Below, one piece after another: positions 7,000 to 58,982 of a DNA stretch of 64,000 nt (the first letter of the stretch is position 1; each line of letters opens with the position of its first letter). The stretch is from sequence record PQ724394.1. One strand, 5' to 3'. Below the pieces are notes generated by a model that searched no databases, was not told the origin of the DNA, and saw nothing but the letters and a program-made list of their open reading frames with translations. Source of the DNA: a phage. The translations under genes and the position numbers were made by a program.

Positions 7000-7860
7000 A
7001 TGATTAAGCAAACTGGTAAAGAACTAATTGACGTCGGTGAAATTGGTAATGCCAGCACCGGCGACATTCTTTATGACGGCGGTGTTAAACTGAACACTGA
7101 CTTAAACAACATCTATAATACTTTCGGCGACCAACGTAAAACTGCTTTAACCGGTGAATTGACCGGCCAGAAATTACACGCTACAGGTTATTATCAAAAA
7201 TTTGGTGATATGGACCAAGCAAGCTCGGTTGATTTAGGCTCTTTGGTGGATATCGATGCTTCTAGCGGTTCTATCGTATTAACCACTGTAAAGGGTGCAG
7301 TTGGTGAAGGAATTGAGATTATCAACTCTAACGGAAGTATTTCATCTACCAACTATCTTGAAATCCGTATATTAGATACTTTTGCAAGTCATCCTACTTC
7401 AACCCTACGTATTGTAACACCTTATACCCGAGTTCTTTTATGGTGTGTATCGGATACAAACGGTGTTGCGGTATGGGATTATTCAATTGAAAGCATGTTT
7501 GGTGATAAACGAGTTCCATTAAATAAGACATATAATATATCTTCTGTCGCTCGTGATATTCCGGTGGTTTATTCAGGTCAGTATTCATTGGTCAAACTTT
7601 TAGTTACTGCAGTGAATGCCAACGAAACCATTTACAAAGCTTCAGAATATCTTGTGTTTATCGATAACCAAGCTAAAAAGATTTATTCCACTGAATACGC
7701 AGTTATTAAACGTGGACAAACTTCAGATGATGACGAAATTTATTCTCTAGATTTTAAATTCGATACATCAAACTATATTATCGCGACCGCTTCTTCTGTC
7801 AATCCTATGAGGCTTGCAATTAAGGTCGTAGAAACCCAAACTATTGGAGTTCCAGTATAA
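7000..7860 (+). CDS. 9: baseplate wedge / long tail fibre attachment protein gp9
   Basis: 286 aa (T4 gp9 288 aa); synteny; AGG ribosome-binding site. Confidence 0.8.
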   Translation: MIKQTGKELIDVGEIGNASTGDILYDGGVKLNTDLNNIYNTFGDQRKTALTGELTGQKLHATGYYQKFGDMDQASSVDLGSLVDIDASSGSIVLTTVKGAVGEGIEIINSNGSISSTNYLEIRILDTFASHPTSTLRIVTPYTRVLLWCVSDTNGVAVWDYSIESMFGDKRVPLNKTYNISSVARDIPVVYSGQYSLVKLLVTAVNANETIYKASEYLVFIDNQAKKIYSTEYAVIKRGQTSDDDEIYSLDFKFDTSNYIIATASSVNPMRLAIKVVETQTIGVPV

Positions 7861-9671
7861 TGAAACAAGACTTAAAAGTAGGTTCCGCTGTTGATGACGG
7901 GTCCGGTGATTACCTGCGCGCAGGTGGTCTTAAAATTAATAACAACTTCAATGAGCTTTATTACCAATTAGGCGACGGCAATAACCCACATGCCGCAGGC
8001 GCTTGGAAACAACATTCTACTGAAGACGGTGCTTTGTTGAATGCCGTAATGGGTCATAGCTACACCCTTAATACCCAGGGTGGGCGTATTAACGTCCAGC
8101 TTCCTAAAGGCTCTCCTGAAGAATATAACTTTGTTATCCGTGTACGTGACGTGTATTCTTCATGGCAAGCTAACCCAGTAACCTTAATCCCTGCCACAGG
8201 TGATACCATTAAAGGTTCAGCTACTCCAGTTGAAATTGCTCGCAACTTCTCTGACCTTGAATTAGTTTATTGTGCACCTGGTCGTTGGGAATATGTTGAA
8301 AATAAGCAAGTAAACCGTATTCCAAATAACGACCTTGCTACCGTAGCAACTAAGCAGTTTATTGCTACTGAAGGTCAAACAGATTTTCTAGATGTTTTCC
8401 CTGGCCTTTCTTATAACGTAGCAAGTTTAAGCGTTTCACAACGTGGTAACAATTTGTTCTATGGTGTTGATGATATTTTTGATGCAGCTACCGCAGAGTT
8501 TGGTTCTCCAGGTGCTCAACCGGGTGAATTGGTTGCCTTGAATGGTAAGGACATCCGTTTAAAATATCCATGCGAAGCAGGTGATACTGTTATTATCAAA
8601 TCGTATAATGACGGACTTGCCCAATGGCGCAGTTCTTATAACCGCCGTGATATAACAATCAAAAGTTCAGAATTGACTAAAGACGTTTCTGTTCCTGGTT
8701 CTTCTTTCGTGGGCGATTTGAGTACTTCACATGTTATATCAGCAGCTGATTTGAATATTTCCGTTAACAGTCCTATCAACCCAAATGCTTGCCAAGTCAT
8801 GCTTAATAGCACATTACTTCATCAAGCTGGTACTGCTGGTCTTCCTTCGTTTTATTGTGAAGGTGCCGACGGACGTACTGCTACCGAGTGTTTTAATGCA
8901 GGTGGACAATGGACCCAATCTAAATCAGATTATATTTTTAATTTGACCGCTGAAGATAAGATTGAATCCATCGAATTTGGACGTGACTTTGAACATGGTG
9001 ATATTCTTACGGTAATTTGGTACAATAACGATATCGGTACCACCATGGAAATTGATGAGATTTTGGATTATACCAACAACATCTATATTTCTAAAGGCCC
9101 TTCTATTGATATATCAGGCCAGGTTCGTATAACTGATGTAGATAATCCTTTTGCACCTAACGTTGAACCTGTCGCCCCATCTAATATTACAATAGATACG
9201 GCATCGACATTTTTTGATTTAATTTACCCTGTAGGAACCATCTATGAGAACACGGTGAACCCTAATAACCCTAAAACTTATATGGGCTTTGGTTCATGGA
9301 AGCGTTTATCTGATGTGTTCTTGGTAGGTTGGTCTCCTGACGCTAGTTCTTTGTTTAATGCAAATAATAACGACCTGGATTCAGCGGGTGTTCCACAATC
9401 AACTGCAGGTGGGACTGGTGGTGCTCATGTGGCTAATTTGAAATATGAGAATATCCCAGAACTTAATACAGATGATAAAGTCCTTATTGCTGATAATGAT
9501 GGCCCTATTTTTGTAGGTGGATGTTTAGTTGACCCTGATTCACAAGGACCGGCTTATACAAAATATCGTGAAGATAAAGCCAGTATTAATAAGGCTCAAG
9601 GGACCACTCCTATCCCGGTTAATACTCTACCACCATACTTAACTGTTCATCGCTGGATGAGGATTGCATAA
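7860..9671 (+). CDS. 10: baseplate wedge / short tail fibre attachment protein gp10
   Basis: 603 aa (T4 gp10 602 aa); TAATG overlap with gene 9 stop. Confidence 0.8.
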   Translation: MKQDLKVGSAVDDGSGDYLRAGGLKINNNFNELYYQLGDGNNPHAAGAWKQHSTEDGALLNAVMGHSYTLNTQGGRINVQLPKGSPEEYNFVIRVRDVYSSWQANPVTLIPATGDTIKGSATPVEIARNFSDLELVYCAPGRWEYVENKQVNRIPNNDLATVATKQFIATEGQTDFLDVFPGLSYNVASLSVSQRGNNLFYGVDDIFDAATAEFGSPGAQPGELVALNGKDIRLKYPCEAGDTVIIKSYNDGLAQWRSSYNRRDITIKSSELTKDVSVPGSSFVGDLSTSHVISAADLNISVNSPINPNACQVMLNSTLLHQAGTAGLPSFYCEGADGRTATECFNAGGQWTQSKSDYIFNLTAEDKIESIEFGRDFEHGDILTVIWYNNDIGTTMEIDEILDYTNNIYISKGPSIDISGQVRITDVDNPFAPNVEPVAPSNITIDTASTFFDLIYPVGTIYENTVNPNNPKTYMGFGSWKRLSDVFLVGWSPDASSLFNANNNDLDSAGVPQSTAGGTGGAHVANLKYENIPELNTDDKVLIADNDGPIFVGGCLVDPDSQGPAYTKYREDKASINKAQGTTPIPVNTLPPYLTVHRWMRIA

Positions 9672-46842: not shown

Positions 46843-46872
46843 ATAGTACCACATCCTTGTGGCGTTGTAAAC
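46843..46872 (-). promoter_or_regulatory. sigma70-like early promoter candidate (GTTTAC-N18-TACTAT)
   Basis: Minus strand: GTTTAC (46872-46867, overlapping the first Alt-like gene stop), 18 nt, TACTAT (46848-46843). Confidence 0.45.
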
Positions 46873-48995
46873 TACATTTTGAATTTATTTGATAAAGAAG
46901 AGATGTCCAAAGATGCAGCAAGGATTTCCATAGCCTCATTACTTTCTGAAACAGATTCTGAAACTAGGAATTCTTTAAACCCATTCATCAATTTAACTTC
47001 ACCGGTTTCCATCAGATGGTCGCCATCGTAAACGGATTCGCTGAGTTCTGAAGGAGATGTCACTGTAGCTTCCATAAGGTATTTGTGAGATACTCTATCA
47101 TTCATAGCAAAAGCCGCTACTTTATCAACCTTCAACAATAACCCGCGCGGAAGGATAATTTCCGCTTCTTCGGCATATTCTGTAAGGTCGCCAGGAGCGA
47201 TAACTTTAACTGCTTCAGCACCTCGAATAACCATACCAATTTCAGCAATCCTGTCTGCAGGGCCTTCAGGTGCAATTGGATTACCAAACTCGTCTTCTTC
47301 CCATTCTACCTCTTCGTCATCGACTTCACCTACGTCAGATGAACTACCACTGGCTAATTTAAACAACTCATCAGCGGAGGATAAAGAACCTTCATCACCG
47401 ACAAAAACTGCTTGGTTGTCGAGGGCCATATAATTTTTACCAAATTCGCCAAAGATATTAGGCTTTAATGAAGCGGACACAAAGTTCTTAAAGTAAAAGG
47501 TTTTGTTATCAATATTATGGCGCAGAATTTTGTATGGTAAATCCTGACCACGATACAAAATAGTACCCTTAGGAAGTTTAATACCCTTGGTAAATGCCGA
47601 GTCTAAATCCTTAATCAATTTAATAGCTGTTGTATTGTTTTCGGATTCAGGTTTACCTAAAAGGAATAAGTTCATAGGAGCATATTCAGCCGCACAATAT
47701 TCAATAATGGCATTACTTTCGTCTTTGGTCAAGCCCTTAGGTTTAATGAGCTCGCCTGAATAAGCATATGCATCGCTAATAGAATCGTTAATCAGTTTAT
47801 AAACGGCTTCCATAGCGAAAGCAATTCGAGATGCTTTCTCTGAAGGAGACCCCTGAAAACGGGCACTCAGGTTATTAACAATTCTCTTAATAATATCCAG
47901 ACTATTGGTAGTATTGATTTGAGAAAGACCGCTTAAAAGTCTATCGACTTCCGTATTAAAAAATGCCATATTATTAGAGTAAATTTCAAACCCTTGTTTA
48001 TCTCTATTAGCATAATTTAGTTTAAATTTACTATCAGTCATTAAAGCGTGCGTGAGAGCAATGGTGTATCTAAAGTTGGCAAGGTCCTCACTCTTAGATT
48101 TAAACTGAGAGGCCTGTCGCATTTTAGTAATAGAACCTTTTTTAAAGTTCTGGCTAATCTGCTCAATACCTTCGTTCTCAGGGCCTTCGGCCGAGTGAAC
48201 AGGGACAGAAGCTTCAAACTCGTTATAAATCTGCAATTCTTTAGGTGATAAAGTTTCGGGTTCGGCAGTAGAATACTGCGCCGCTGCAGCCATACGACGG
48301 GAAATCTTAGTACGAGAAATAACAGCCTTATCGGTACGTTTCTCTTCAACCTGTGCAATAGATGCCGCTACGGCTTCTACTTTACTTACGGCCTGGCCGG
48401 TTTTCTTAGAAACATAAACTTCACCGACTTTAGACTCAACCTTGGTATAAAGGTCTGCATCAATTTCAGGCATACCCTTGATATCTTCGATATTAGAACC
48501 ACGACGTACTAAAAGAACGTAGGTATGTTTACCACTAAACTGGAACATATCATCGACAACTTTAAACTTACCACCGGTACGTGCCATCACCAAACGAGCT
48601 AATACACGCTGAACGGTAGGACCCTTACCTTTCATTTTCTTGGTAGGGAAACGGAACAAAACTGCATCCATTTTAAGTTTGTTTACTTGTTCGTATACGG
48701 TATCGAAAATAGTATTCAGTGTACCAAGTGGGTCAGAACCAAGCCCACCTTTGAGTTCAGCCGGAGCACCCTTGCTAGACAAACTCATTAAAATAATATG
48801 AACGTATTTGTCGCCAGGCTTAACCATTTTAATAGCGTCTCCTTGAGACGCATAAGATACCATACGAGCAACCAGGTTATCATTACCTGGTGCTTGGATA
48901 GAGAAAATCTGTGGGATACCTGAGCCTGGCTTAAGATTTGTTACTGGATAGTTTTTAGCTGAATCACTATCAAAAACTTCGTTTAAATTTTCCAT
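46872..48995 (-). CDS. alt: Alt-like ADP-ribosyltransferase paralogue 1
   Basis: 707 aa; R-S-E motifs in the C-terminal half (LYRGQ, FVSAS, EAEIILPRG); position between gene 54 and DNA ligase as for T4 alt (682 aa). Confidence 0.7.
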   Translation of the reverse strand: MENLNEVFDSDSAKNYPVTNLKPGSGIPQIFSIQAPGNDNLVARMVSYASQGDAIKMVKPGDKYVHIILMSLSSKGAPAELKGGLGSDPLGTLNTIFDTVYEQVNKLKMDAVLFRFPTKKMKGKGPTVQRVLARLVMARTGGKFKVVDDMFQFSGKHTYVLLVRRGSNIEDIKGMPEIDADLYTKVESKVGEVYVSKKTGQAVSKVEAVAASIAQVEEKRTDKAVISRTKISRRMAAAAQYSTAEPETLSPKELQIYNEFEASVPVHSAEGPENEGIEQISQNFKKGSITKMRQASQFKSKSEDLANFRYTIALTHALMTDSKFKLNYANRDKQGFEIYSNNMAFFNTEVDRLLSGLSQINTTNSLDIIKRIVNNLSARFQGSPSEKASRIAFAMEAVYKLINDSISDAYAYSGELIKPKGLTKDESNAIIEYCAAEYAPMNLFLLGKPESENNTTAIKLIKDLDSAFTKGIKLPKGTILYRGQDLPYKILRHNIDNKTFYFKNFVSASLKPNIFGEFGKNYMALDNQAVFVGDEGSLSSADELFKLASGSSSDVGEVDDEEVEWEEDEFGNPIAPEGPADRIAEIGMVIRGAEAVKVIAPGDLTEYAEEAEIILPRGLLLKVDKVAAFAMNDRVSHKYLMEATVTSPSELSESVYDGDHLMETGEVKLMNGFKEFLVSESVSESNEAMEILAASLDISSLSNKFKM

Positions 48996-48998
48996 TAT

Positions 48999-51083
48999 TT
49001 ACCCTTGGATGAATTTTTCTGGTATGTCATAGAGGTCTATGCATGAAGCCAAAAGTGGCAGTACGTCAAACCGTGTAGATTTAACAAATGAATCAAAAGA
49101 TACAGGGCTTTCGGAAGTATCGAAGTCATCTTGGTATACAACCAATTCACCAGTTTCCATTAGTACGTCACCATCATACACCACAGATTCTTGAAGCTCA
49201 TCTGTGGTCATAACTTCGGCTTGAACGAGTTTTGTATTACTAGATGTTGTTCCGTCATTATTAGAGGCATCGGTTATTTTATTAACTTTGACCATCAATC
49301 CACGCGGTAGAATAACTTCAGCTTCTGTTGCTATTCCGAGACTTCCTGGATATACAACATTAACTTTATGGGCTCCATCAATTGCCCATCCTATTTGAAC
49401 TTTAACGTAATCAGGGTTTTCTTTATACGCTCTTATTTCATTAGGATTAATGGTTATTCCTTCTTCATTTTTATCGACTGTCAATTCATTGCGAACTTCC
49501 GGTTCTAAAAGACCGACACCCGCGTGTGTAACACCAAAACGACCAAAAATGATAGGAGTCAGTGAAGTAGATACAAAATTTCTAAAATAAAATACCTTAT
49601 TTTTAACTAGTGCTTCGTATATAGGAGCAGTCATACTTTGAGCACGATAAACTGTAATGCCTTCTGGTATACGGTCACCATTTTCAAAAGCTGAATCAAG
49701 ATTATTAACAGCAGATTCAATAGACCTTTCATTCATTACATCATAGTTCTGAGGATTATAACGTCCTAAAAGAAGATTATTGATGTCGGTATAACCTGAG
49801 CCGCAGTATTCTCTGATGCCGCGCTTTTGTGATGGGGTGTATTTAGAACCATCGCGAGCAATAGTAATATCGACCATAATACCACCGCCTACACCAGCAA
49901 AACTATATACACGTTTTTTAATGAACTTGGTCTTGGCTGCTTTCCACTTGGACTCGGTTAATTCATTCCAGACGTCGTCAGGCTGACCTTTACGAGTTTT
50001 GTTATGTATAGCCAGCCATTCGCCTTTATATTCTTCAAAAACTGTATTAATAACAGAGGCATACTTTTCTAGAGCTTTAACAGATGTCAAAGGTTCGTTT
50101 TTGATGGCTGTAAGAATTCTCTCTTTAATTTTCTCTTGGATTTCACCTATACCGTGAAGAGGAAACATTTTATATTCATAATGCAACTCTTCAGCAGTGC
50201 CTTCAGCTACTATATTAGCAACTTTATTTTTAGCCGCAGGAGAATTGTTATTGGTGACCATTTCCTGTGCCTCAGGGATTAATGGAGCTGTTGCAGGTTT
50301 ATTAAAATCTGCTGCAGTAGCTTCATATTTCTTAAACAGTTCACTTTCATTACGATAAGATTCTAAAGACTGACTTGCTGCAATAGCGCGACGAGAAATC
50401 TTAGTCTTGGTTATAACCATTTTATCAGTGCGACGTTCTTCAACTTTAGCAATACTGCCGGCAATAGCAGTTTCTTTAGTAACCTGCACACCTTCTTTTT
50501 TAGAAATATAAACTTCACCAACATCAGAATCTACCTTAGTATATAATTCGGCATTAATTCCTGGCATACCTTTGATATCTTCAATATCAGCTTGTTTACG
50601 AACTACTAGGATATAAGTATGTTTACCGGTAAATTGGTACATGGCTGGAACTACTTTAAAACGTCCACCGGTTTTCTGTGCTACCAAACGTTGGATAATC
50701 CGTTGGACGATAGGTCCTTGTCCTTTCATTTTCTTGGTTGGAAAACGGAACATCACAGCATCCATACGAAGCTTTTTAACTTGTTCGAATACTACGTCGA
50801 AAATGGTATTAATAGCATCAATAGGAGTAGGGCCTAAGCCGCCTTTAAGTTCGGCTGGAGAACCTTTAGCTGAAAGGCTCATAAGGATGACGTGGGCGTA
50901 TTTATCACCTAATTTAACCTGTTTAATAGCATCGCCTTCAGAGGCATAAGATACCATACGGGCCACTAATTGGGATTCGGCGTCGCCAATCTTCCAAATC
51001 TGCGGTACTTTAAGTTTTGGGTTTAAGTTTACAGTAGGCAGGGTGCCTTCAGACTCAAACACTTCATTTAATTGTTCGGTCAT
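48999..51083 (-). CDS. Alt-like ADP-ribosyltransferase paralogue 2
   Basis: 694 aa; N-terminal ~140 aa highly similar to paralogue 1; R-S-E motifs (VYRAQ, FVSTS, EAEVILPRG). Confidence 0.7.
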   Translation of the reverse strand: MTEQLNEVFESEGTLPTVNLNPKLKVPQIWKIGDAESQLVARMVSYASEGDAIKQVKLGDKYAHVILMSLSAKGSPAELKGGLGPTPIDAINTIFDVVFEQVKKLRMDAVMFRFPTKKMKGQGPIVQRIIQRLVAQKTGGRFKVVPAMYQFTGKHTYILVVRKQADIEDIKGMPGINAELYTKVDSDVGEVYISKKEGVQVTKETAIAGSIAKVEERRTDKMVITKTKISRRAIAASQSLESYRNESELFKKYEATAADFNKPATAPLIPEAQEMVTNNNSPAAKNKVANIVAEGTAEELHYEYKMFPLHGIGEIQEKIKERILTAIKNEPLTSVKALEKYASVINTVFEEYKGEWLAIHNKTRKGQPDDVWNELTESKWKAAKTKFIKKRVYSFAGVGGGIMVDITIARDGSKYTPSQKRGIREYCGSGYTDINNLLLGRYNPQNYDVMNERSIESAVNNLDSAFENGDRIPEGITVYRAQSMTAPIYEALVKNKVFYFRNFVSTSLTPIIFGRFGVTHAGVGLLEPEVRNELTVDKNEEGITINPNEIRAYKENPDYVKVQIGWAIDGAHKVNVVYPGSLGIATEAEVILPRGLMVKVNKITDASNNDGTTSSNTKLVQAEVMTTDELQESVVYDGDVLMETGELVVYQDDFDTSESPVSFDSFVKSTRFDVLPLLASCIDLYDIPEKFIQG

Positions 51084-51305: not shown

Positions 51306-52811
51306 TTATAGTCCAGTTTGAGACCAATCACCAAATACATCTTCAAATGTATCAGCTTCTGTTTTATCGAAACGCCAACCTTTAATAGTTGGAAGGAAAA
51401 TACCTACAGTATCAGTACGTCCTTTAGAATGAACCCAACCATTACATTCACAGTCAGCAATACGTCCAATCAACTTACCTTCACGGGCTTGTTTCATAAG
51501 AAGTTCACGGTCTAAATCAGGACGGTTTTCTAATGGGATTAATACCTTTTTACCGGATTTATCTTTCTTATGGGTGGTATCTTTAAAACCGGAACCACAG
51601 TCAGTTGTAATACGACGGCACCGTGATACTAACTCAATACCACCAATCTTGTTAGGGTCTTTAGAGTGTTCATAATAACCTACTACTTCTAAAGCAATAT
51701 CGATTACTTCTTTGAACTTTATAAGATTCTTAGAACGGCGGTTCTCCCAGTAGGAGTCCATGTTCTTAAGGATAATACCTTCCAAGCGTTTGCCGATATA
51801 TTTCTTATAAACTGCTTTAGCTTCGTCCAGGTTATTAACCCACTGCGTTTCGATAGGCTCGACACGTGTAAAACCTTCAGCCATTTGTACTAATGCCGCT
51901 AAACGAACATCGTATTTTTGACCTTTAATTTTGCCTTCAGAATAAACTTCATCCAATGGAACATAGTCCCACGCCTGTAATACCATGCCATCAGCTTCAG
52001 CTGGAGTAATAGTTCCTTGAAGAGCCTTGTTAGCCAAGCCATTTGACGTAGAACGATCGGCTACGGTTTGGAACTCCTTAGCCTTACTTAATTCAGGAAG
52101 TTCTTCATCAAACATACTAAACAAATCATTAGATGCTTTAGGTTCTACTTTAGGTGTATGGTAAACTAATTCACCATCAATCATAACACCATTAGGATGA
52201 CGCTGACGAGCTTCTTCGGTCATTTTAATAAGTTCGGCCGCAAGCTTAGTAAGCCCTTGATATTCGTTCCCACCACGAGTAAGGAATGTTACCCCATCGT
52301 TACGAACTTCAGCAAAACAACGGGCACCGTCAGCTTTTAATTGGGCGAACGCTGGCCATTTAATATTTTTCTTAATCAGGGCTTCGTCATAAGAACTAGC
52401 CAACATTTGAGGTTGTTCAGGGATTAAACCTTTCCAAACCTTGTTAGCAATAGAAATCGATGCACCACATTCAAGGTCACGCATCATTACTCGACGTAAT
52501 ACCTCAGCGTCAGGACCCTTAGCATCGGCAATAATTTGGGCAAGCTCTTCAATAGCCGCATTACCTGTAATCTTACGGGTGGCTAATGTGAACTCAGCGA
52601 AATCAAGAAGGTCTTCAAGTGTAATCATACCAAAGGATTGAGACGTAAATCCAGGTTCAGGCCACTTTTTAATACCGTAGTTTAAACGACGGGTATAAGC
52701 CATACGATATACACGTTTCAGAAGCTCGTTATCCTTTTCACGAGCAATAATAGCTTCTTTAGCTTTAGTAGAATCAATAGAAGCAATTTCGTTTAAAATA
52801 TCTAAAATCAT
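51306..52811 (-). CDS. 30: ATP-dependent DNA ligase gp30
   Basis: 501 aa; N-terminus MILDILNEIASIDSTK and adenylation motif KADGAR closely match T4 DNA ligase. Confidence 0.95.
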   Translation of the reverse strand: MILDILNEIASIDSTKAKEAIIAREKDNELLKRVYRMAYTRRLNYGIKKWPEPGFTSQSFGMITLEDLLDFAEFTLATRKITGNAAIEELAQIIADAKGPDAEVLRRVMMRDLECGASISIANKVWKGLIPEQPQMLASSYDEALIKKNIKWPAFAQLKADGARCFAEVRNDGVTFLTRGGNEYQGLTKLAAELIKMTEEARQRHPNGVMIDGELVYHTPKVEPKASNDLFSMFDEELPELSKAKEFQTVADRSTSNGLANKALQGTITPAEADGMVLQAWDYVPLDEVYSEGKIKGQKYDVRLAALVQMAEGFTRVEPIETQWVNNLDEAKAVYKKYIGKRLEGIILKNMDSYWENRRSKNLIKFKEVIDIALEVVGYYEHSKDPNKIGGIELVSRCRRITTDCGSGFKDTTHKKDKSGKKVLIPLENRPDLDRELLMKQAREGKLIGRIADCECNGWVHSKGRTDTVGIFLPTIKGWRFDKTEADTFEDVFGDWSQTGL

Positions 52812-53071
52812 TTTACCGTCCTTACAGTTTGTGTACTTCTATTATAAGCTACTTCATCTAAAAGCTCATTTAAAGTTTTGTGATACGATATAATACGCTT
52901 ATCTTTAATATCATATTCAGTAACATACATAAATCCACGCCGAACACATTGGATAAAGATATCTTCATCTTTGGCTTGGAAATATACAGGGTTCAATCGA
53001 AGGAATTGTCTAACGTTTCCATAATCATGGGATTTAGGGATTCCATCAGTAATAGTATGAACAACAAACAT
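52808..53071 (-). CDS. hypothetical protein (87 aa)
   Basis: ATGA-type overlap with the ligase start; start taken at internal ATG 53071 preceded by GAGG. Confidence 0.5.
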   Translation of the reverse strand: MFVVHTITDGIPKSHDYGNVRQFLRLNPVYFQAKDEDIFIQCVRRGFMYVTEYDIKDKRIISYHKTLNELLDEVAYNRSTQTVRTVK

Positions 53072-53072
53072 A

Positions 53073-53711
53073 TTAACCTCGTGCAATCCATTCAACGGCT
53101 GCATTATTACGAAGGGATTCGATTGCTGCAATATCGTCCCATGAATTAACCTTTACGGCTAAATTAGGTTTAAAGTCGCGTTCACCACGGGCTAACCAAT
53201 AAACTTGGATATCCATGAGAATATTAGATGCAGCATCACAGTGGTGAGCCAAATCGTCAACATAAAACTTAATGCGTTTACCGTATGTATTTTTAGCTCT
53301 TATGAACAGGTCTTCTTTTGATTCTGAATGACCACACATCAGAATCTCCTTGAATGCACCAGGGAACAAAGCATTCAAATTGAATTGTCTATTCAGCAGA
53401 GCATCAATTGAGTCGCCTAGCGCAGTCACGGCTACAAAATCGAAGTCTTTTTTGAGCTTGTTGATGTGTTTTAATGCATCCATGTAAGGGGACAGATAAC
53501 GAATAAAATCTGACTGGTTATATTTCTCGATTAAACGTGCGCCTAATTCGTCGTCACAATTAAACAGTTCGCCTGGAGATAAGAAACGTTCGTCCTGAAT
53601 CATATTCAAAATATGTTCTAAAGGCAAATTATATTTCTGTGCGAAATAAGGCAAGCCGGACTGCCAACTTAAACATACTCCATCGATATCTGTTAAGATA
53701 ACTGGTTTCAT
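53073..53711 (-). CDS. HAD-superfamily hydrolase-like protein
   Basis: 212 aa; N-terminal DIDGV motif typical of HAD phosphatases. Confidence 0.55.
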   Translation of the reverse strand: MKPVILTDIDGVCLSWQSGLPYFAQKYNLPLEHILNMIQDERFLSPGELFNCDDELGARLIEKYNQSDFIRYLSPYMDALKHINKLKKDFDFVAVTALGDSIDALLNRQFNLNALFPGAFKEILMCGHSESKEDLFIRAKNTYGKRIKFYVDDLAHHCDAASNILMDIQVYWLARGERDFKPNLAVKVNSWDDIAAIESLRNNAAVEWIARG

Positions 53712-54175
53712 AATAAATCTCTCAATTTGTTTAGGATGTCGATAAACTCTTTTTCAGTTAGTATTGTATCACATTCTTTGAGGTGGCTTGCCATTGAATG
53801 CTTTAAAACCTTACCTTTAGTGGCTTGTAAAGCTTCTCGGAATCCTTTGTTCTGGAGTGCTGCTTCAAAATACGCACTTTCGTAAAGCTCTTTCCATGCT
53901 TCGGAATATCTTGAAAACGGGGTTCCAAGCCAGAACAACGTGCCACGGTCCTGAGCTCTAGCATAAGCTCGTCCAGCTTTTTGTGCGTCTAACCCGGACA
54001 TCCTAAATATACGTCTTTGTTGTTCAACACTTTTCACCTTACATCCTTGGAGGAATCCTTCGAGTCCACCAAATTGGATACCGTCCATAACGAAAGGCCA
54101 TTTAGCAAAGTTACTTAATGCGCATGATGGCCACGGAAAGTTACTTCTAATTTCTAACTCAGACATCTTTGACAC
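53708..54175 (-). CDS. NADAR/YbiA-like (DUF1768) domain protein
   Basis: 155 aa; LSNFAKWPFVMDGIQFGGLEGFLQGCK resembles the conserved N-terminal block of E. coli YbiA (FSNFAAWPIKVDGKTWPTSEHYFQAQKF); ATGA overlap with the HAD-like gene. Confidence 0.5.
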   Translation of the reverse strand: MSKMSELEIRSNFPWPSCALSNFAKWPFVMDGIQFGGLEGFLQGCKVKSVEQQRRIFRMSGLDAQKAGRAYARAQDRGTLFWLGTPFSRYSEAWKELYESAYFEAALQNKGFREALQATKGKVLKHSMASHLKECDTILTEKEFIDILNKLRDLL

Positions 54176-54371
54176 TTATAATCTTGGTAGCGTACCACAT
54201 ACCATGGTCCGGTAATCTGGATTTAATTGACCGCCCACGATATGTTTTTCGCATTATAACAGTCTTAATAACATCTTCATCACAAGCATATGGCGGCGAT
54301 AAGTCGATAACACGATAAGTCACTTCAACCATTTCTAGGCCAAACAGCTTTTTAAGCCATTTCTTAACCAT
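54159..54371 (-). CDS. hypothetical protein (70 aa)
   Basis: Minus-strand ORF in a tightly packed early operon. Confidence 0.45.
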   Translation of the reverse strand: MVKKWLKKLFGLEMVEVTYRVIDLSPPYACDEDVIKTVIMRKTYRGRSIKSRLPDHGMWYATKIISVKDV

Positions 54372-54372
54372 A

Positions 54373-54567
54373 TTATCCTCGCTTCAAACATTTGATTACA
54401 GATAATTCAGAACCCATACGAACGTCTTCAGTTCCATCGACCCACAGGACGGTGTAGGCTTCTTTAATAGTAGCATTACCTAATTTAAAACCAGGCAAGA
54501 CCTTAGAAATCATTCCAGGAATACCTACACCTTTTAACTGGACGGTTTGTGATAAGAATAGTTGCAT
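54373..54567 (-). CDS. hypothetical protein (64 aa)
   Basis: Minus-strand ORF; start overlaps the upstream ORF stop. Confidence 0.4.
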   Translation of the reverse strand: MQLFLSQTVQLKGVGIPGMISKVLPGFKLGNATIKEAYTVLWVDGTEDVRMGSELSVIKCLKRG

Positions 54568-54854
54568 TAGAACCTCATCTGAAATCCATGTGATTTAACA
54601 TTACCGCCGTAGATGTCAGAAGTATTGACTTCGCGGGCAGCGCTAGGGTCGATGTTAATATCATGGTTGAGCTTAGTGATTGCTAGGGTGTCACGACCAT
54701 TGACTGTACGGAATTCTACTGGACAAACCACATCAGCATAAGCCTTAATGGATTCACGAGTAGGCTGTTTGTCGGCAGGAACATCTTTACCTGCCTTAGA
54801 GAAAACAACTTCACAGAAATTTTTACGAGTATCGAAATAAGTGGTCATAAACAT
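54567..54854 (-). CDS. hypothetical protein (about 95 aa)
   Basis: Start placed at internal ATG 54854 (GAGGA upstream) so the terminator hairpin at 54870-54885 lies outside the coding region. Confidence 0.45.
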   Translation of the reverse strand: MFMTTYFDTRKNFCEVVFSKAGKDVPADKQPTRESIKAYADVVCPVEFRTVNGRDTLAITKLNHDINIDPSAAREVNTSDIYGGNVKSHGFQMRF

Positions 54855-54869
54855 AATATTTTCCTCAAA

Positions 54870-54885
54870 GGAGGCCGAAGCCTCC
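54870..54885 (-). terminator. UUCG hairpin terminator after the 121-aa gene
   Basis: Plus ggaggc-cgaa-gcctcc; on minus an A-run, the hairpin, then a T-run. Confidence 0.6.
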
Positions 54886-54895
54886 ATTTTTAAGA

Positions 54896-55261
54896 TTAGA
54901 TATCAAATTCATTCAGAACTACATCAAAGATTGCTTCCAGGTGTTCAGGTTTAGCACGGTTGCTCAGGATGTGACGAATCCAGGTTTTAACCAGAAGCTT
55001 ACGATTATCACCGTTCCAGCAAGGATGGGTACCTAAATCACGTTGACGGAAATCATCATCCAAAGCGATTTTAAAAGTAGAACCTTCCATAGTGATTGAA
55101 ACCGTGATACCATTTTCAAAGCGCATATAAACGTAGTTAGGAGTCATGCACTGTTCGATTTCGCACACTGTGCTGTTGTTGTGTTTCCACAGGCAAATAA
55201 CTTCAGAAGAACCAGCAATACCGTTAGAAACATATTTACGTTCGAAGTTGATGTAGTTCAT
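54896..55261 (-). CDS. hypothetical protein (121 aa), leader shared with the adjacent upstream gene
   Basis: Minus-strand ORF preceded by a ~40-nt leader identical to that of the 55336-55704 gene; GGAG ribosome-binding site. Confidence 0.5.
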   Translation of the reverse strand: MNYINFERKYVSNGIAGSSEVICLWKHNNSTVCEIEQCMTPNYVYMRFENGITVSITMEGSTFKIALDDDFRQRDLGTHPCWNGDNRKLLVKTWIRHILSNRAKPEHLEAIFDVVLNEFDI

Positions 55262-55310
55262 TTTATTCTCCAGTTTGTTTTCGTATTATTTGGTACAGGT
55301 CTATAATAAC
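55259..55310 (-). repeat. repeated 5' leader/promoter module, copy A
   Basis: cattttattctccagtttgttttcgtattatttggtaca identical to 55703-55741; contains GTTTAC-N17-TATTAT on minus and a hairpin ggtacaggt...acctgtacc (55291-55321). Confidence 0.7.
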
Positions 55311-55335
55311 ACAACCTGTACCAAAGTAAACCGTT

Positions 55336-55704
55336 TTATGCAACTTTAATCCAATTATCTAAATTTAATTCACCTTTGGCTTTCATTTTTTCGATCAGGT
55401 CATCTGCAGTTATACGACCATTTTGATACCATGTAACATCTTCAGAATAACCAGTTTCTTCATCTTCATAGGTCTTACAACGAATCTTACCGGTTATGAT
55501 AGTTTTCAGTTCGTAGGTATCACCGGTAAAAAAGTTTGTTACCAAAATTTTCCAAGAGAAGTCATCAGAAGGACCTTCAGGAGTCATACAACCTACAAAT
55601 TCAAATTGTTCTTTGTACAAGCGCCATTGCATCTCTTTAGTTTCAATAGCTTTATAACCGTCGTGGTCTTTACATTTGATATATGAGTTAAGATTGATTT
55701 TCAT
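55336..55704 (-). CDS. hypothetical protein (122 aa)
   Basis: Minus-strand ORF with the same leader as the 54896-55261 gene; weak similarity between the two proteins (CMTP motif). Confidence 0.5.
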   Translation of the reverse strand: MKINLNSYIKCKDHDGYKAIETKEMQWRLYKEQFEFVGCMTPEGPSDDFSWKILVTNFFTGDTYELKTIITGKIRCKTYEDEETGYSEDVTWYQNGRITADDLIEKMKAKGELNLDNWIKVA

Positions 55705-55775
55705 TTTATTCTCCAGTTTGTTTTCGTATTATTTGGTACATGTCTATAGTATCATGCCTACCGGAGATGTATACC
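55703..55775 (-). repeat. repeated 5' leader/promoter module, copy B
   Basis: Same ~40-nt leader; minus strand GTATAC-N17-TACTAT upstream. Confidence 0.7.
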
Positions 55776-55800
55776 CTTTTTTTAAGATTTAGAAACAAAA

Positions 55801-55822
55801 ATGGGACTCCGAAGAGTCCCAT
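55801..55822 (-). terminator. UUCG hairpin terminator
   Basis: Plus atgggactc-cgaa-gagtcccat; on minus followed by a T-rich run. Confidence 0.6.
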
Positions 55823-55825
55823 AAC

Positions 55826-55987
55826 TTATGCAATAACTTTACCGAAGCAAGCAGCATCTGCACGCAATACTGCACGAGCACGAGCTTGAAGCTTATCAAC
55901 TACCTGATTGATACGCTTGTTAGACGCACGCTTGTAACCAGCGCGTTTAGAGGTTCCGTCAACTACTTTAACTTCTTTCTTAGCCAT
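55826..55987 (-). CDS. candidate small basic protein (53 aa), not in the ORF track
   Basis: ATG at 55987; translation MAKKEVKVVDGTSKRAGYKRASNKRINQVVDKLQARARAVLRADAACFGKVIA; followed by a terminator hairpin. Confidence 0.35.
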   Translation of the reverse strand: MAKKEVKVVDGTSKRAGYKRASNKRINQVVDKLQARARAVLRADAACFGKVIA

Positions 55988-56340
55988 TTTTAAATCTCTT
56001 AAATTAGGATGCAGGACTTATTGGCATTGCCTGCGCAAGCCCTCAAGGGGAACATAGGTTTTAGATATTTAACGACAGGATAACCGTAAACCTCGTCATC
56101 ATAGCTCTTATCTGTTGCACACCGTTAGCTTAAAGGTTCCGGGTTCGATTTCTCGAGGATAAGATATATACTGATGGATATATAGGCCTTGAGGCGTACT
56201 CCCGATTGGCCATCACCTCGGGGTAGCATGCACTTGCCGCTATAAAATAACATTCAAGAGGTACACCGTAAAACTGCCGGGGTCTTAAAACTATAATGAT
56301 TCGCAAATCATTAATCAGACAGTTCGACGGCTCCTCGATT

Positions 56341-56589
56341 TTACTTCAGGGTAATAATAAAATGACGTACTGCTTTACGAGCTGCTGAAGCCAAAGGCTT
56401 AGCATATTTCAGTTCATCTTTTGCTTCCAATTCAGCGGCCAGAGTAGCCTGAGCAGGATTAAGATGTTTGAAATAACGCAGGATTTCCAGTGCTTCGGCT
56501 TCAACATCAATAGATGCGCCGTAGTTTTCGTGACCGTTGTTCCAAGCGTTGCGTTGCAGTTCAAGAGCGTGATTCAGATGTTTGTTCAT
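56341..56589 (-). CDS. rIII: rIII lysis inhibition accessory protein
   Basis: Internal ATG at 56589 gives 82 aa (MNKHLNHALELQRNAWNNGHENYGASIDVEAEALEILRYF...), matching T4 rIII in length and sequence. Confidence 0.8.
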   Translation of the reverse strand: MNKHLNHALELQRNAWNNGHENYGASIDVEAEALEILRYFKHLNPAQATLAAELEAKDELKYAKPLASAARKAVRHFIITLK

Positions 56590-56727
56590 TTTAAATTCTC
56601 GATTCGAGATAAAGATTGGTGGACACGTTCTTCTGAATTTCACTTCCTTTCGGCAAGTCTCTCAGTTGTAGTCCACCGCTTAGGATTCTCCGGTTAACTA
56701 ACTAGTCCGGCAGCCAATCCATATTAT

Positions 56728-56735
56728 TATTTATA
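56728..56735 (-). promoter_or_regulatory. late promoter (TATAAATA on minus) upstream of rIII
   Basis: Plus TATTTATA immediately after the gene 31 stop; about 140 nt upstream of the rIII ATG, leader contains inverted repeat ggtggac/gtccacc. Confidence 0.45.
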
Positions 56736-57059
56736 TCACTTATAAAGACACGGAATAGCTTTATAGTGGCAGGTAACGAATTTCTGTTTAATTTCTTTAG
56801 GCTGTTTAATACCAAGCGCAACTAAAGGATGAGGCACGTTAGCAATCTTACCAACAGGAAGTGGAGTCAAATCACCTACTTCACAAAAACCTTCAGGGAC
56901 ATCAGGCCCTACAGAATAAATTTCGCAAAGTTCAGGGATTTCACCTTGATGAAGTTTGCCAATAACGATACCAGATGCAGTAGTTTCTTCATCACCAGCT
57001 TGTTTTGGTTCGGAAACGAGAATAACATATTCTCCGACCGCTTTAATAGGAAGTTCCAT
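56736..57059 (-). CDS. 31: co-chaperonin gp31 (GroES-like)
   Basis: 107 aa; [12 protein letters not shown]...[14 protein letters not shown]...[23 protein letters not shown] closely matches T4 gp31. Confidence 0.9.
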
Positions 57060-57090
57060 ATTTAATCCATGTTGTTTTGTTGATAGATTA

Positions 57091-57115
57091 ATAATAACAC
57101 GCTATTCTTAAAGCA
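57091..57115 (-). promoter_or_regulatory. MotA-dependent middle promoter candidate for gene 31
   Basis: Minus strand: TGCTTTA MotA box, 12-nt spacer, TATTAT. Confidence 0.5.
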
Positions 57116-57117
57116 TA

Positions 57118-57417
57118 TTACAGGACAAGCAGAGTTTCAGTCTGAAGCCCATTAATAGAAATCAGTTTATCGAAACGGAATGAACGCCAGTCATTAACCT
57201 TGGTATCAAATACACGAATATAATTAACCGGTTCTTTATTAGCTTCTTGGCCCGGGGCTTGAATTTCTTTATACGGGAGGAGGTCCAGGTCGCGAGTACA
57301 AGTCATACGACGAACGCTACCATCCGCCTTTTCAAACAGAACTTCGTGAGTACCCACAGACAGAATAGTCTTGGCTTTTTCACGGAGTCGAATAGTTTCT
57401 TGTTCAGTTAAAATCAT
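57118..57417 (-). CDS. hypothetical protein (99 aa)
   Basis: Minus-strand ORF between cd and gene 31 (T4 31.1/31.2 region). Confidence 0.5.
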   Translation of the reverse strand: MILTEQETIRLREKAKTILSVGTHEVLFEKADGSVRRMTCTRDLDLLPYKEIQAPGQEANKEPVNYIRVFDTKVNDWRSFRFDKLISINGLQTETLLVL

Positions 57418-57419
57418 AA

Positions 57420-57653
57420 TTATTCCAGGATAGTTTTAATAGTTGTTGCATTACGCTCTTTTAGAGCACTTAATAGGCTATGGCAATTATCAAGAATAGG
57501 CACTGTTTTGTATTTCATTTCGGCGCGAACCCACTCGGATTTATAGTATGATTTCCAACGAGAGAAAAAGTACTTTTTATATTCCACTGAATAGGCTACT
57601 AAGCTTTCGCCTTTTGAGTTCAGACCTGAAAACTTCACTAATCGAAATTTCAT
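57420..57653 (-). CDS. hypothetical protein (77 aa)
   Basis: Minus-strand ORF; start overlaps the cd stop region. Confidence 0.45.
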   Translation of the reverse strand: MKFRLVKFSGLNSKGESLVAYSVEYKKYFFSRWKSYYKSEWVRAEMKYKTVPILDNCHSLLSALKERNATTIKTILE

Positions 57654-58198
57654 TATTCACCACAATAGTTTTGAATTGATTCCCAGTTCAGAGAACGGAG
57701 ACCGGTACGGTTATACTGGATAACTTCGATGCCTGATTCACGGAGGATATCATCCCAACCTTCAGGATTTCGGTCATAGAGTTCAGCATAAACCAGAGTT
57801 TTAATTCCGGACTGCGCAATAGACTTAGCACAATCTGCACATGGAGATAGTGTCACATACATTGTAGCACCGTCAATAGAACTTCCTGTACGAGCTGCGA
57901 ACAGAATAGCATTCAGTTCGGCATGGATTTCATTTTTGGATGACCATGCGGCATGAGCCATACGATGTTCTTTAAGAAGAATCGATTTATGGGACATTCG
58001 TGCTGTGTCATACACAACACGAGTCCAGTTCTGTTCTGCCGCGTGGTCACAACAGTTCACACCACCGGAAGGCGAACCATTATACCCTGTAGAAATAATG
58101 CGACCATTCTTTTCAATAACCGCACCCACTTTCCATGAACAACATTTTGATTCTTGAGAAATCAGGTATGCAATCTGAAGGTATGTGCTTGCTTTCAT
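57653..58198 (-). CDS. cd: dCMP deaminase
   Basis: 181 aa; zinc-binding deaminase motifs HAELNAI and PCADC; N-terminus MKASTYLQIAYLISQESKCCSWKVGAVIE matches T4 Cd. Confidence 0.9.
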   Translation of the reverse strand: MKASTYLQIAYLISQESKCCSWKVGAVIEKNGRIISTGYNGSPSGGVNCCDHAAEQNWTRVVYDTARMSHKSILLKEHRMAHAAWSSKNEIHAELNAILFAARTGSSIDGATMYVTLSPCADCAKSIAQSGIKTLVYAELYDRNPEGWDDILRESGIEVIQYNRTGLRSLNWESIQNYCGE

Positions 58199-58428
58199 TC
58201 CACGTACACTCGCTGCGCTTCGACTAGACCATCAGAACCAAGTTTTAACTGGGTAATCTGGTCGCCATTTTTAGGATTAACGATAACCAATACTGCACGT
58301 GGTGATTCCTGAATTACTCGCAGAGTTGCATCAGGAAAACGTACAGAAACCTTATTAATCAGGGCCTGAGCAAATTCTTTAACTTTAACTTGGAACTGCT
58401 CTACAGTAATAGGTTGTTCGCTCAGCAT
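58195..58428 (-). CDS. hypothetical protein (77 aa)
   Basis: ATGA overlap with the cd start. Confidence 0.45.
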   Translation of the reverse strand: MLSEQPITVEQFQVKVKEFAQALINKVSVRFPDATLRVIQESPRAVLVIVNPKNGDQITQLKLGSDGLVEAQRVYVE

Positions 58429-58982
58429 TAGATGGTCTCCAACTTAAGTTGTTTGGTAGTGGTAGCTTGGGTAACGTCGCCTTTAACAATATAACACACC
58501 TGTTGGAACGAACTGGTCAAAAGCTCTTCGGCTTGACGGTCGGCTTGTTCTTTTGTGTTATGGCGAGAATGAACTTCAATCTTACCATTTTTAACGATAA
58601 GCACTTTCCATTCAGCAGTGGCTTTTACCAGCTTAGGTTCATCATTTTCAGGAATACTCACCGAGGCCAGTGGACGTACTACTTCAATAAAGTAATCGAA
58701 TTCATGGCCAAAAAAGCCTGAGGAATTAAAAAGAACAGCATTTGCATCATCAGGATTACCTGTGATTTTGCTCGGGTCGACAAACATCATCTCGTCATAT
58801 ACACGAATTCGGCTTACACGTTCACGCCCATTATGGTAATCAATTTCAACTTCAAACGGGTTCATACCTACATACTTGGCAAAAGCTGTATTGAGGCCAT
58901 AAGCGCCGTTATTAGTGAATTTGTTTTTAGTGTATTCACTACCGAACTTATAAAACTTACGCTCTTCAAAGAACTTGCTCAT
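58428..58982 (-). CDS. hypothetical protein (about 184 aa)
   Basis: Start taken at internal ATG (MSKFFEERKF...) because the ORF-track N-terminal extension overlaps the upstream gene. Confidence 0.45.
   Translation of the reverse strand: MSKFFEERKFYKFGSEYTKNKFTNNGAYGLNTAFAKYVGMNPFEVEIDYHNGRERVSRIRVYDEMMFVDPSKITGNPDDANAVLFNSSGFFGHEFDYFIEVVRPLASVSIPENDEPKLVKATAEWKVLIVKNGKIEVHSRHNTKEQADRQAEELLTSSFQQVCYIVKGDVTQATTTKQLKLETI

Follow-up and report, generated by a model that had tools for sequence, protein, structure and literature searches.

Introduction

According to papers citing their work, the NADAR superfamily was defined by De Souza and Aravind. Bioinformatic studies predicted the gp30.3/NADAR family in 2012 and a second time in 2022; biochemical work followed in 2023–2024 and genetic work in 2024. 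NADARs associated with DarT1 were found to hydrolyse guanine-N2-ADP-ribose, and a catalytic Glu/Lys pair was identified (Schuller et al. 2023, PMC11543638). At the third catalytic position, YbiA-type NADARs have Glu, DarG1-type NADARs Asp and phage NADARs His (PMC11543638), and the His123-type signature of the phage proteins has been treated in PMC11543638, PMC11125620, and PMC12945103. In the summary table of PMC12945103, reversal of cytidine-ADPr is listed for the NADAR and YbiA families only and not for phage NADAR.

The phage NADARs were termed “gp30.3 proteins” in a Toxins paper from 2024 (PMC11125620). All of the E. coli and phage NADARs characterised there were active in vitro on ADP-ribosylated DNA, and phage NADAR failed to protect uninfected cells from DarT1. 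In the methods section of the same paper the T4 gp30.3 construct is given as “residues 1–208”, yet T4 gp30.3 consists of 152 aa.

Resistance to DarTG1 was mapped to gene 30.3 with the aid of phage crosses, and the gene was renamed adfN (Johannesman, Carlson and LeRoux 2024, PMC11257639 / PMC11825919). It was found to be necessary, with deletions in T4 and T2 causing a loss of four logs in plating in the presence of DarTG1, and AdfN was found to be sufficient, with expression in trans rescuing RB69 (PMC11257639). The exchanges E36A and K43A abolish the function of T4 AdfN, the purified protein strips ADP-ribose from DarT1-modified DNA, and AdfN is without effect on DarTG2 (PMC11257639). The gp30.3 allele of RB69 is inactive; it carries a one-base insertion and the resulting frameshift removes the final 15 residues, and RB69 is sensitive to DarTG1 because of this truncation (PMC11257639). 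AdfN performs best in T-even infections, possibly owing to a preference for hydroxymethylated DNA (PMC11257639), and T4 AdfN barely aids phages outside Tevenvirinae (PMC11125620, PMC11257639).

Phage identity and gene neighbourhood

The window, that is, the whole stretch of phage DNA that was analysed (64,000 nucleotides), contains a copy of this gene. The region 53000..54900 is 94 to 96% identical to the JS98-group phages JS98, JS10, dhaeg, and MN04, and on sequence identity the source is a JS98-like T4-type phage of the genus Dhakavirus, subfamily Tevenvirinae. The genes are arranged in the order two Alt-type ADP-ribosyltransferases, alt.1, DNA ligase (gene 30), 30.1 (DUF3045), 30.2, 30.3, 30.4 to 30.9, rIII, and gene 31 (Cpn10-like); around adfN the succession alt–30–30.1–30.2–30.3–30.4 is that of T4. 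The slot of adfN between 30.2 and 30.4 is the same as in T4 and JS98, both in order and in start/stop overlaps. The following features were located:

46872..48995, minus strand: Alt-type ADP-ribosyltransferase paralogue, 707 aa (PF03496)
48999..51083, minus strand: Alt-type ADP-ribosyltransferase paralogue, 694 aa (PF03496)
53073..53711, minus strand: gp30.2, 212 aa (phrog_420), ATGA-joined to adfN
53708..54166, minus strand: adfN (gene 30.3) coding sequence, predicted phage-type NADAR ADP-ribosylglycohydrolase, 152 aa, ATG start
53803..53964, minus strand: counterpart of T4 30.3' (annotated with 75 aa in T4), internal ORF in an alternative frame, 53 codons

An earlier note on this DNA, made from the sequence alone, had mentioned Alt-like ADP-ribosyltransferases a few kilobases away, and these are indeed encoded by the two tandem PF03496 genes, both full-length, at distances of 2.6 to 6.8 kb from adfN and on the same strand. 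The label “early block”, also used there, is based on knowledge of T4 and on Iyer et al. 2022 rather than on promoter scanning: a sigma-70 scan of 52500..58500 returned six sites versus 16 expected by chance and was uninformative with regard to early transcription. An Rfam scan of the entire 64-kb window gave zero matches.

Several observations were made on the surrounding genes. The N-terminus of gp30.2 is HAD-phosphatase-like (MKPVILTDIDGV, with a DIDGV start), and a weak Pfam match to NT5C (5'-nucleotidase) was obtained at E 0.1, below threshold; the protein is 75% identical to residues 1–191 of T4 gp30.2, the C-terminal tail of which (~85 aa) is absent. The mechanically called ORF of gene 30.1 (DUF3045; 52808..53131, minus strand) has a TTG start and overlaps 30.2 by 59 nt, and the Pfam match together with the JS98 annotation places the true start at an internal ATG at ~53071, with zero overlap with 30.2. 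Between 30.9 and rIII a stretch of ~353 nt (55988..56340) is without a convincing ORF, a gap shared by JS98; immediately past 30.9, a strong hairpin precedes a T-run (55822..55801, minus strand). The 30.3' counterpart is 53% identical to T4 30.3', versus 84% for the main adfN frame. In view of its 53 codons and 53% identity it is probably not a conserved gene here and looks like a by-product of the main frame.

Start codon and overlaps of adfN

The ends of the gene were read from the following features:

54167..54175, minus strand: nine bases GTG TCA AAG, within the mechanical ORF call, probably untranslated in adfN
54159..54166, minus strand: ATGTCTGA overlap of the gene 30.4 stop with the adfN start (direct sequence reading)
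53708..53711, minus strand: ATGA overlap of the adfN stop with the gene 30.2 start (sequence and ORF list)

In the mechanical ORF list the gene appears as an ORF of 155 aa with a GTG start (53708..54175, minus strand), in which the ATG at 54166 is the fourth codon. In both T4 and JS98, gp30.3 is annotated with 459 nt / 152 aa and the N-terminus MSELEIRSNF, as obtained here upon translation from ATG 54166, and the closest database homologue (P0001) likewise has 152 aa. Because the T4 and JS98 orthologues are 152 aa long and begin in this way, the true start is most likely ATG 54166, giving a protein of 152 aa; the GTG at 54175 was dropped in its favour on the basis of the T4 and JS98 gene starts and of the gapless alignment with T4. 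The 155-aa ORF described earlier is therefore real as an ORF, and its nine 5' bases are probably not translated. In the T4 record (L001), 30.3 occupies 7308..7766 and 30.4 occupies 7759..7965, with the same 8-nt overlap as here, and the 4-nt overlap of 30.3 with 30.2 is identical in T4 and the window. Translational coupling through the ATGTCTGA overlap of 30.4 and adfN is probable.

Family assignment and distribution

The only match of the window protein in a Pfam scan was PF08010 (Phage_30_3; E 1.4e-64, 216.5 bits against a gathering cut-off of 36 bits, model positions 2–138 of 138). A search of PHROGs returned phrog_652 (E 1.5e-51), a family without assigned function. When aligned with BLASTP, T4 gp30.3 and the window protein share 128 of 152 residues (84%), gapless and over the full length. 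On these comparisons the window gene is identified as the adfN (anti-DarT factor NADAR) of a Dhakavirus, orthologous to gene 30.3 of T4.

The gp30.3 gene was found with tblastn in 1,511 phage records, with hosts including Escherichia, Klebsiella, Aeromonas, Acinetobacter, Vibrio, and Caulobacter; Caulobacter phage CcrColossus is a distant carrier. An exhaustive HMM search with the gp30.3 family gave 1,091 cluster representatives (50% identity) at E<=0.001. Metagenomic gp30.3-type domains occur fused to a Tpt1/KptA RNA 2'-phosphotransferase (ART-fold), a GDSL lipase/esterase, and BspA-type LRR (P0160, P0045, and P0139). In relatives of ~290 aa (P0022, P0024, P0026, and P0031) two stretches match the profile, suggesting tandem duplication, and in P0022 both were confirmed as PF08010 stretches. 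PF22075 (DUF6939) was touched by three of 61 single-domain members.

Homology to NADAR

A direct Pfam scan of the window protein gave no PF08719 (NADAR) match, even at E<=0.1, because gp30.3 is modelled in Pfam as a separate family. Sub-threshold matches to PF08719 were present in 10 of 61 family members (best E 1.1e-4), and those of fusion proteins reached 4.9e-6. When PDB sequences were searched, the sole match was E. coli YbiA (2b3w), in the block LSNFAKWPF..DG..F..LEGFLQGCK, and the E value of this match fell from 1 with the single sequence to 0.0049 with a profile of nine sequences and to 0.0007 with a profile of 61 sequences. The structures 8bau and 8bat were not reached by profile searches of PDB sequences and required a structural search. 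Comparison of the 61-member profile with YbiA by hhalign gave a probability of 95% and E 4e-8; with 136 aligned columns, the alignment covered the domain in full.

An AlphaFold2 model of the window protein was obtained with pLDDT 80 and pTM 0.79, with low confidence for the first 17 residues, of which 9–17 are poorly defined. When the model was compared with the PDB by Foldseek, three NADAR structures ranked at the top with a probability of >=0.99, and all others remained below 0.1; YbiA was the closest solved structure. The NADAR alpha+beta fold, a helical core flanked by small beta-hairpins, is present in the predicted model.

Homology of the window protein to NADAR is thus well supported by sequence profiles and by the predicted model. 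The N-terminal NADAR/YbiA-like block on which the earlier note had relied is real, YbiA being aligned over LSNFAKWPF..DG..F..LEGFLQGCK in the search of PDB sequences. The profile search proposed there gave a divided answer: the Pfam match to PF08719 is missing, and the family is recovered by profile–profile and structure comparisons, which overturn the reading of this miss as evidence against NADAR homology.

Catalytic residues and C-terminal helix

Residues were counted from ATG 54166, and the numbering matches that of T4. The relevant positions are:

54059..54061, minus strand: Glu36 codon GAA, predicted catalytic, aligned to Glu of YbiA SEHYFQAQK
54038..54040, minus strand: Lys43 codon AAG, predicted catalytic, aligned to Lys of YbiA SEHYFQAQK
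53798..53800, minus strand: His123 codon CAT, phage NADAR signature, aligned to Glu of YbiA LVEH
53714..53755, minus strand: C-terminal alpha-helix, residues 138–151, intact according to the model and the gapless T4 alignment

In the predicted model, His123 is situated within the last beta-strand (120–124). Among 61 family members, with identities down to 32%, there is no variation at N19, E36, H123, and T137, and the conservation of K43 is 90% or higher. The C-terminal helix, intact here, is what the inactive RB69 allele has lost. The window protein keeps E36, K43, and H123 at the positions of T4 AdfN, and the catalytic Glu/Lys block, named beforehand as the feature to be checked against YbiA, is retained on alignment (Glu36 and Lys43).

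Proposed function and alternatives

The window gene is very probably a functional adfN, encoding a guanine-specific DNA ADP-ribosylglycohydrolase that would counter DarTG1. AdfN would be a free-standing, minimal N-glycosidase of the NADAR fold. The host toxin DarT1 would ADP-ribosylate guanine (N2) in replicating phage DNA and so block replication; AdfN would then hydrolyse the N-glycosidic bond that links ADP-ribose to guanine by means of Glu36, Lys43, and His123, and a replicable template would be restored, allowing the phage to escape the abortive defence of DarTG1. The identity of the gene, its synteny, its intact frame, the fold, and the presence of the catalytic residues were established in this analysis, and enzyme activity and phenotype are taken from the T4 literature, from which this 84%-identical allele may be expected to act as T4 AdfN does. 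Counter-defence against DarT-type ADP-ribosylation, the first of two roles suggested in the earlier note, has been demonstrated for the T4 orthologue (PMC11257639), to which the window protein is 84% identical with E36, K43, and H123 kept. Full transfer of the T4 results is opposed by the 24 of 152 residues that differ; the missing direct match to PF08719, the low confidence of the first 17 residues in the model, and the limits of T4 AdfN itself in uninfected cells and outside Tevenvirinae also weigh against it.

There is a small chance that the protein, or phage NADARs in general, has a second substrate beyond DarT1-modified guanine in hmC-DNA, such as RNA G-ADPr or adducts of other host ART toxins, or that its substitutions relative to T4 retune it to the DNA modification of its own genus. 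The metagenomic fusions of gp30.3-type domains to Tpt1/KptA suggest that in some relatives the domain may serve a function connected with RNA.

The second role suggested earlier, regulation of the Alt-type ADP-ribosylation that the phage itself directs, found no support. In its wider form, as an eraser or regulator of ADP-ribosylation by Alt-type enzymes or ModA/ModB on host proteins or RNA, this explanation is very unlikely. It could draw on the two Alt paralogues, encoded on the strand of adfN at 2.6 to 6.8 kb from it, and on the position of T4-like NADAR genes among early genes alongside ARTs (Iyer et al. 2022); however, adfN lies near alt because the T4 gene order is conserved, and the ligase and two other genes intervene. 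Moreover, Alt-type enzymes act on the arginines of proteins and NADARs on base–ribose bonds, which they cleave, and the characterised NADARs, including that of T4, are guanine-ADPr N-glycosidases, some non-phage members also acting on cytidine-ADPr (PMC11543638, PMC12945103). The reported phenotype of T4 delta-adfN is specific to DarTG1 (PMC11257639), and the gp30.3 family is also encoded by distant phages such as CcrColossus.

Hydrolysis of a small molecule, either of riboflavin intermediates as by YbiA or of ADP-ribose-derived immune signals, has an equally slender likelihood as the main function. YbiA is the nearest solved structure, and phage NADARs have been proposed to prefer soluble ADPr derivatives as substrates (Iyer et al. 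2022), but the Glu that defines YbiA is replaced by His123 in every family member examined (n=61), and T4 AdfN acts on DNA in vitro with an in vivo phenotype that fits de-ADP-ribosylation of DNA (PMC11257639). Such hydrolysis would be an additional activity at most and is unneeded to explain the data.

A decayed, non-functional copy is the least probable explanation and hardly credible: single-base frameshifting has naturally inactivated gene 30.3 in RB69 (PMC11257639) and truncated or chimeric database fragments of gp30.3 occur (P0012 to P0021), but here the frame runs to its full 152 aa, no catalytic residue is missing, the C-terminal helix is retained, and the identity of the protein to close relatives (97 to 99%), exceeding the DNA identity over the surrounding 1.9-kb region (~94%), is consistent with purifying selection on adfN.

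Significance

The anti-DarTG1 biology of AdfN has already been published, and the window gene is an ordinary intact copy that adds nothing new to it. Carrying a known counter-defence gene in intact form, the phage is expected to plate on DarTG1 hosts, and the assignment is of practical use for annotation and for prediction of host range in phage therapy. Public records of gene 30.3 in close relatives are labelled “hypothetical protein”, and the link to NADAR is lost in a plain Pfam search because gp30.3 is filed under PF08010 and not under NADAR.

Comparison with known systems

E. coli YbiA (2b3w, PF08719 NADAR/DUF1768) is only ~22% identical to the window protein and carries Glu at the position of His123. 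It acts as an N-glycosidase on riboflavin intermediates and does not protect against DarT1 in vivo (PMC11125620).

DarG1, the antitoxin of DarTG1 (G. lovleyi 8bat, E. coli C7 NADAR), has an N-terminal extension, whereas the window protein is a bare core domain, and Asp is present in DarG1 where AdfN has His123. DarG1 is encoded beside DarT1 and guards uninfected cells; AdfN is an orphan that is mainly effective in T-even infection, and no DarT gene lies beside adfN in the window, its neighbours being 30.2 and 30.4. By analogy, the window protein would act like DarG1, but it stands outside the DarG1 clade.

The NADARs of Bas32 and Bas60 (T5-like and Vequintavirinae phages) are, like AdfN, phage orphan NADARs that counter DarTG1 (PMC11257639 / PMC11825919). 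They differ from it in belonging to other, independently acquired clades and in neutralising DarT1 without infection and beyond T-even phages (PMC11257639 / PMC11825919).

The closest known system is that of T4, a Tequatrovirus, the phage of the window being a Dhakavirus. T4 has a single alt with the short remnants alt.-1 and alt.-2 in place of the two full-length Alt paralogues found here. Relative to T4 AdfN the window protein carries 24 substitutions, among them R11P, Q22K, and N46S towards the N-terminus, and it shares with T4 AdfN the length of 152 aa, the genomic slot, the overlaps with 30.2 and 30.4, the residues E36, K43, and H123, and the terminal helix.
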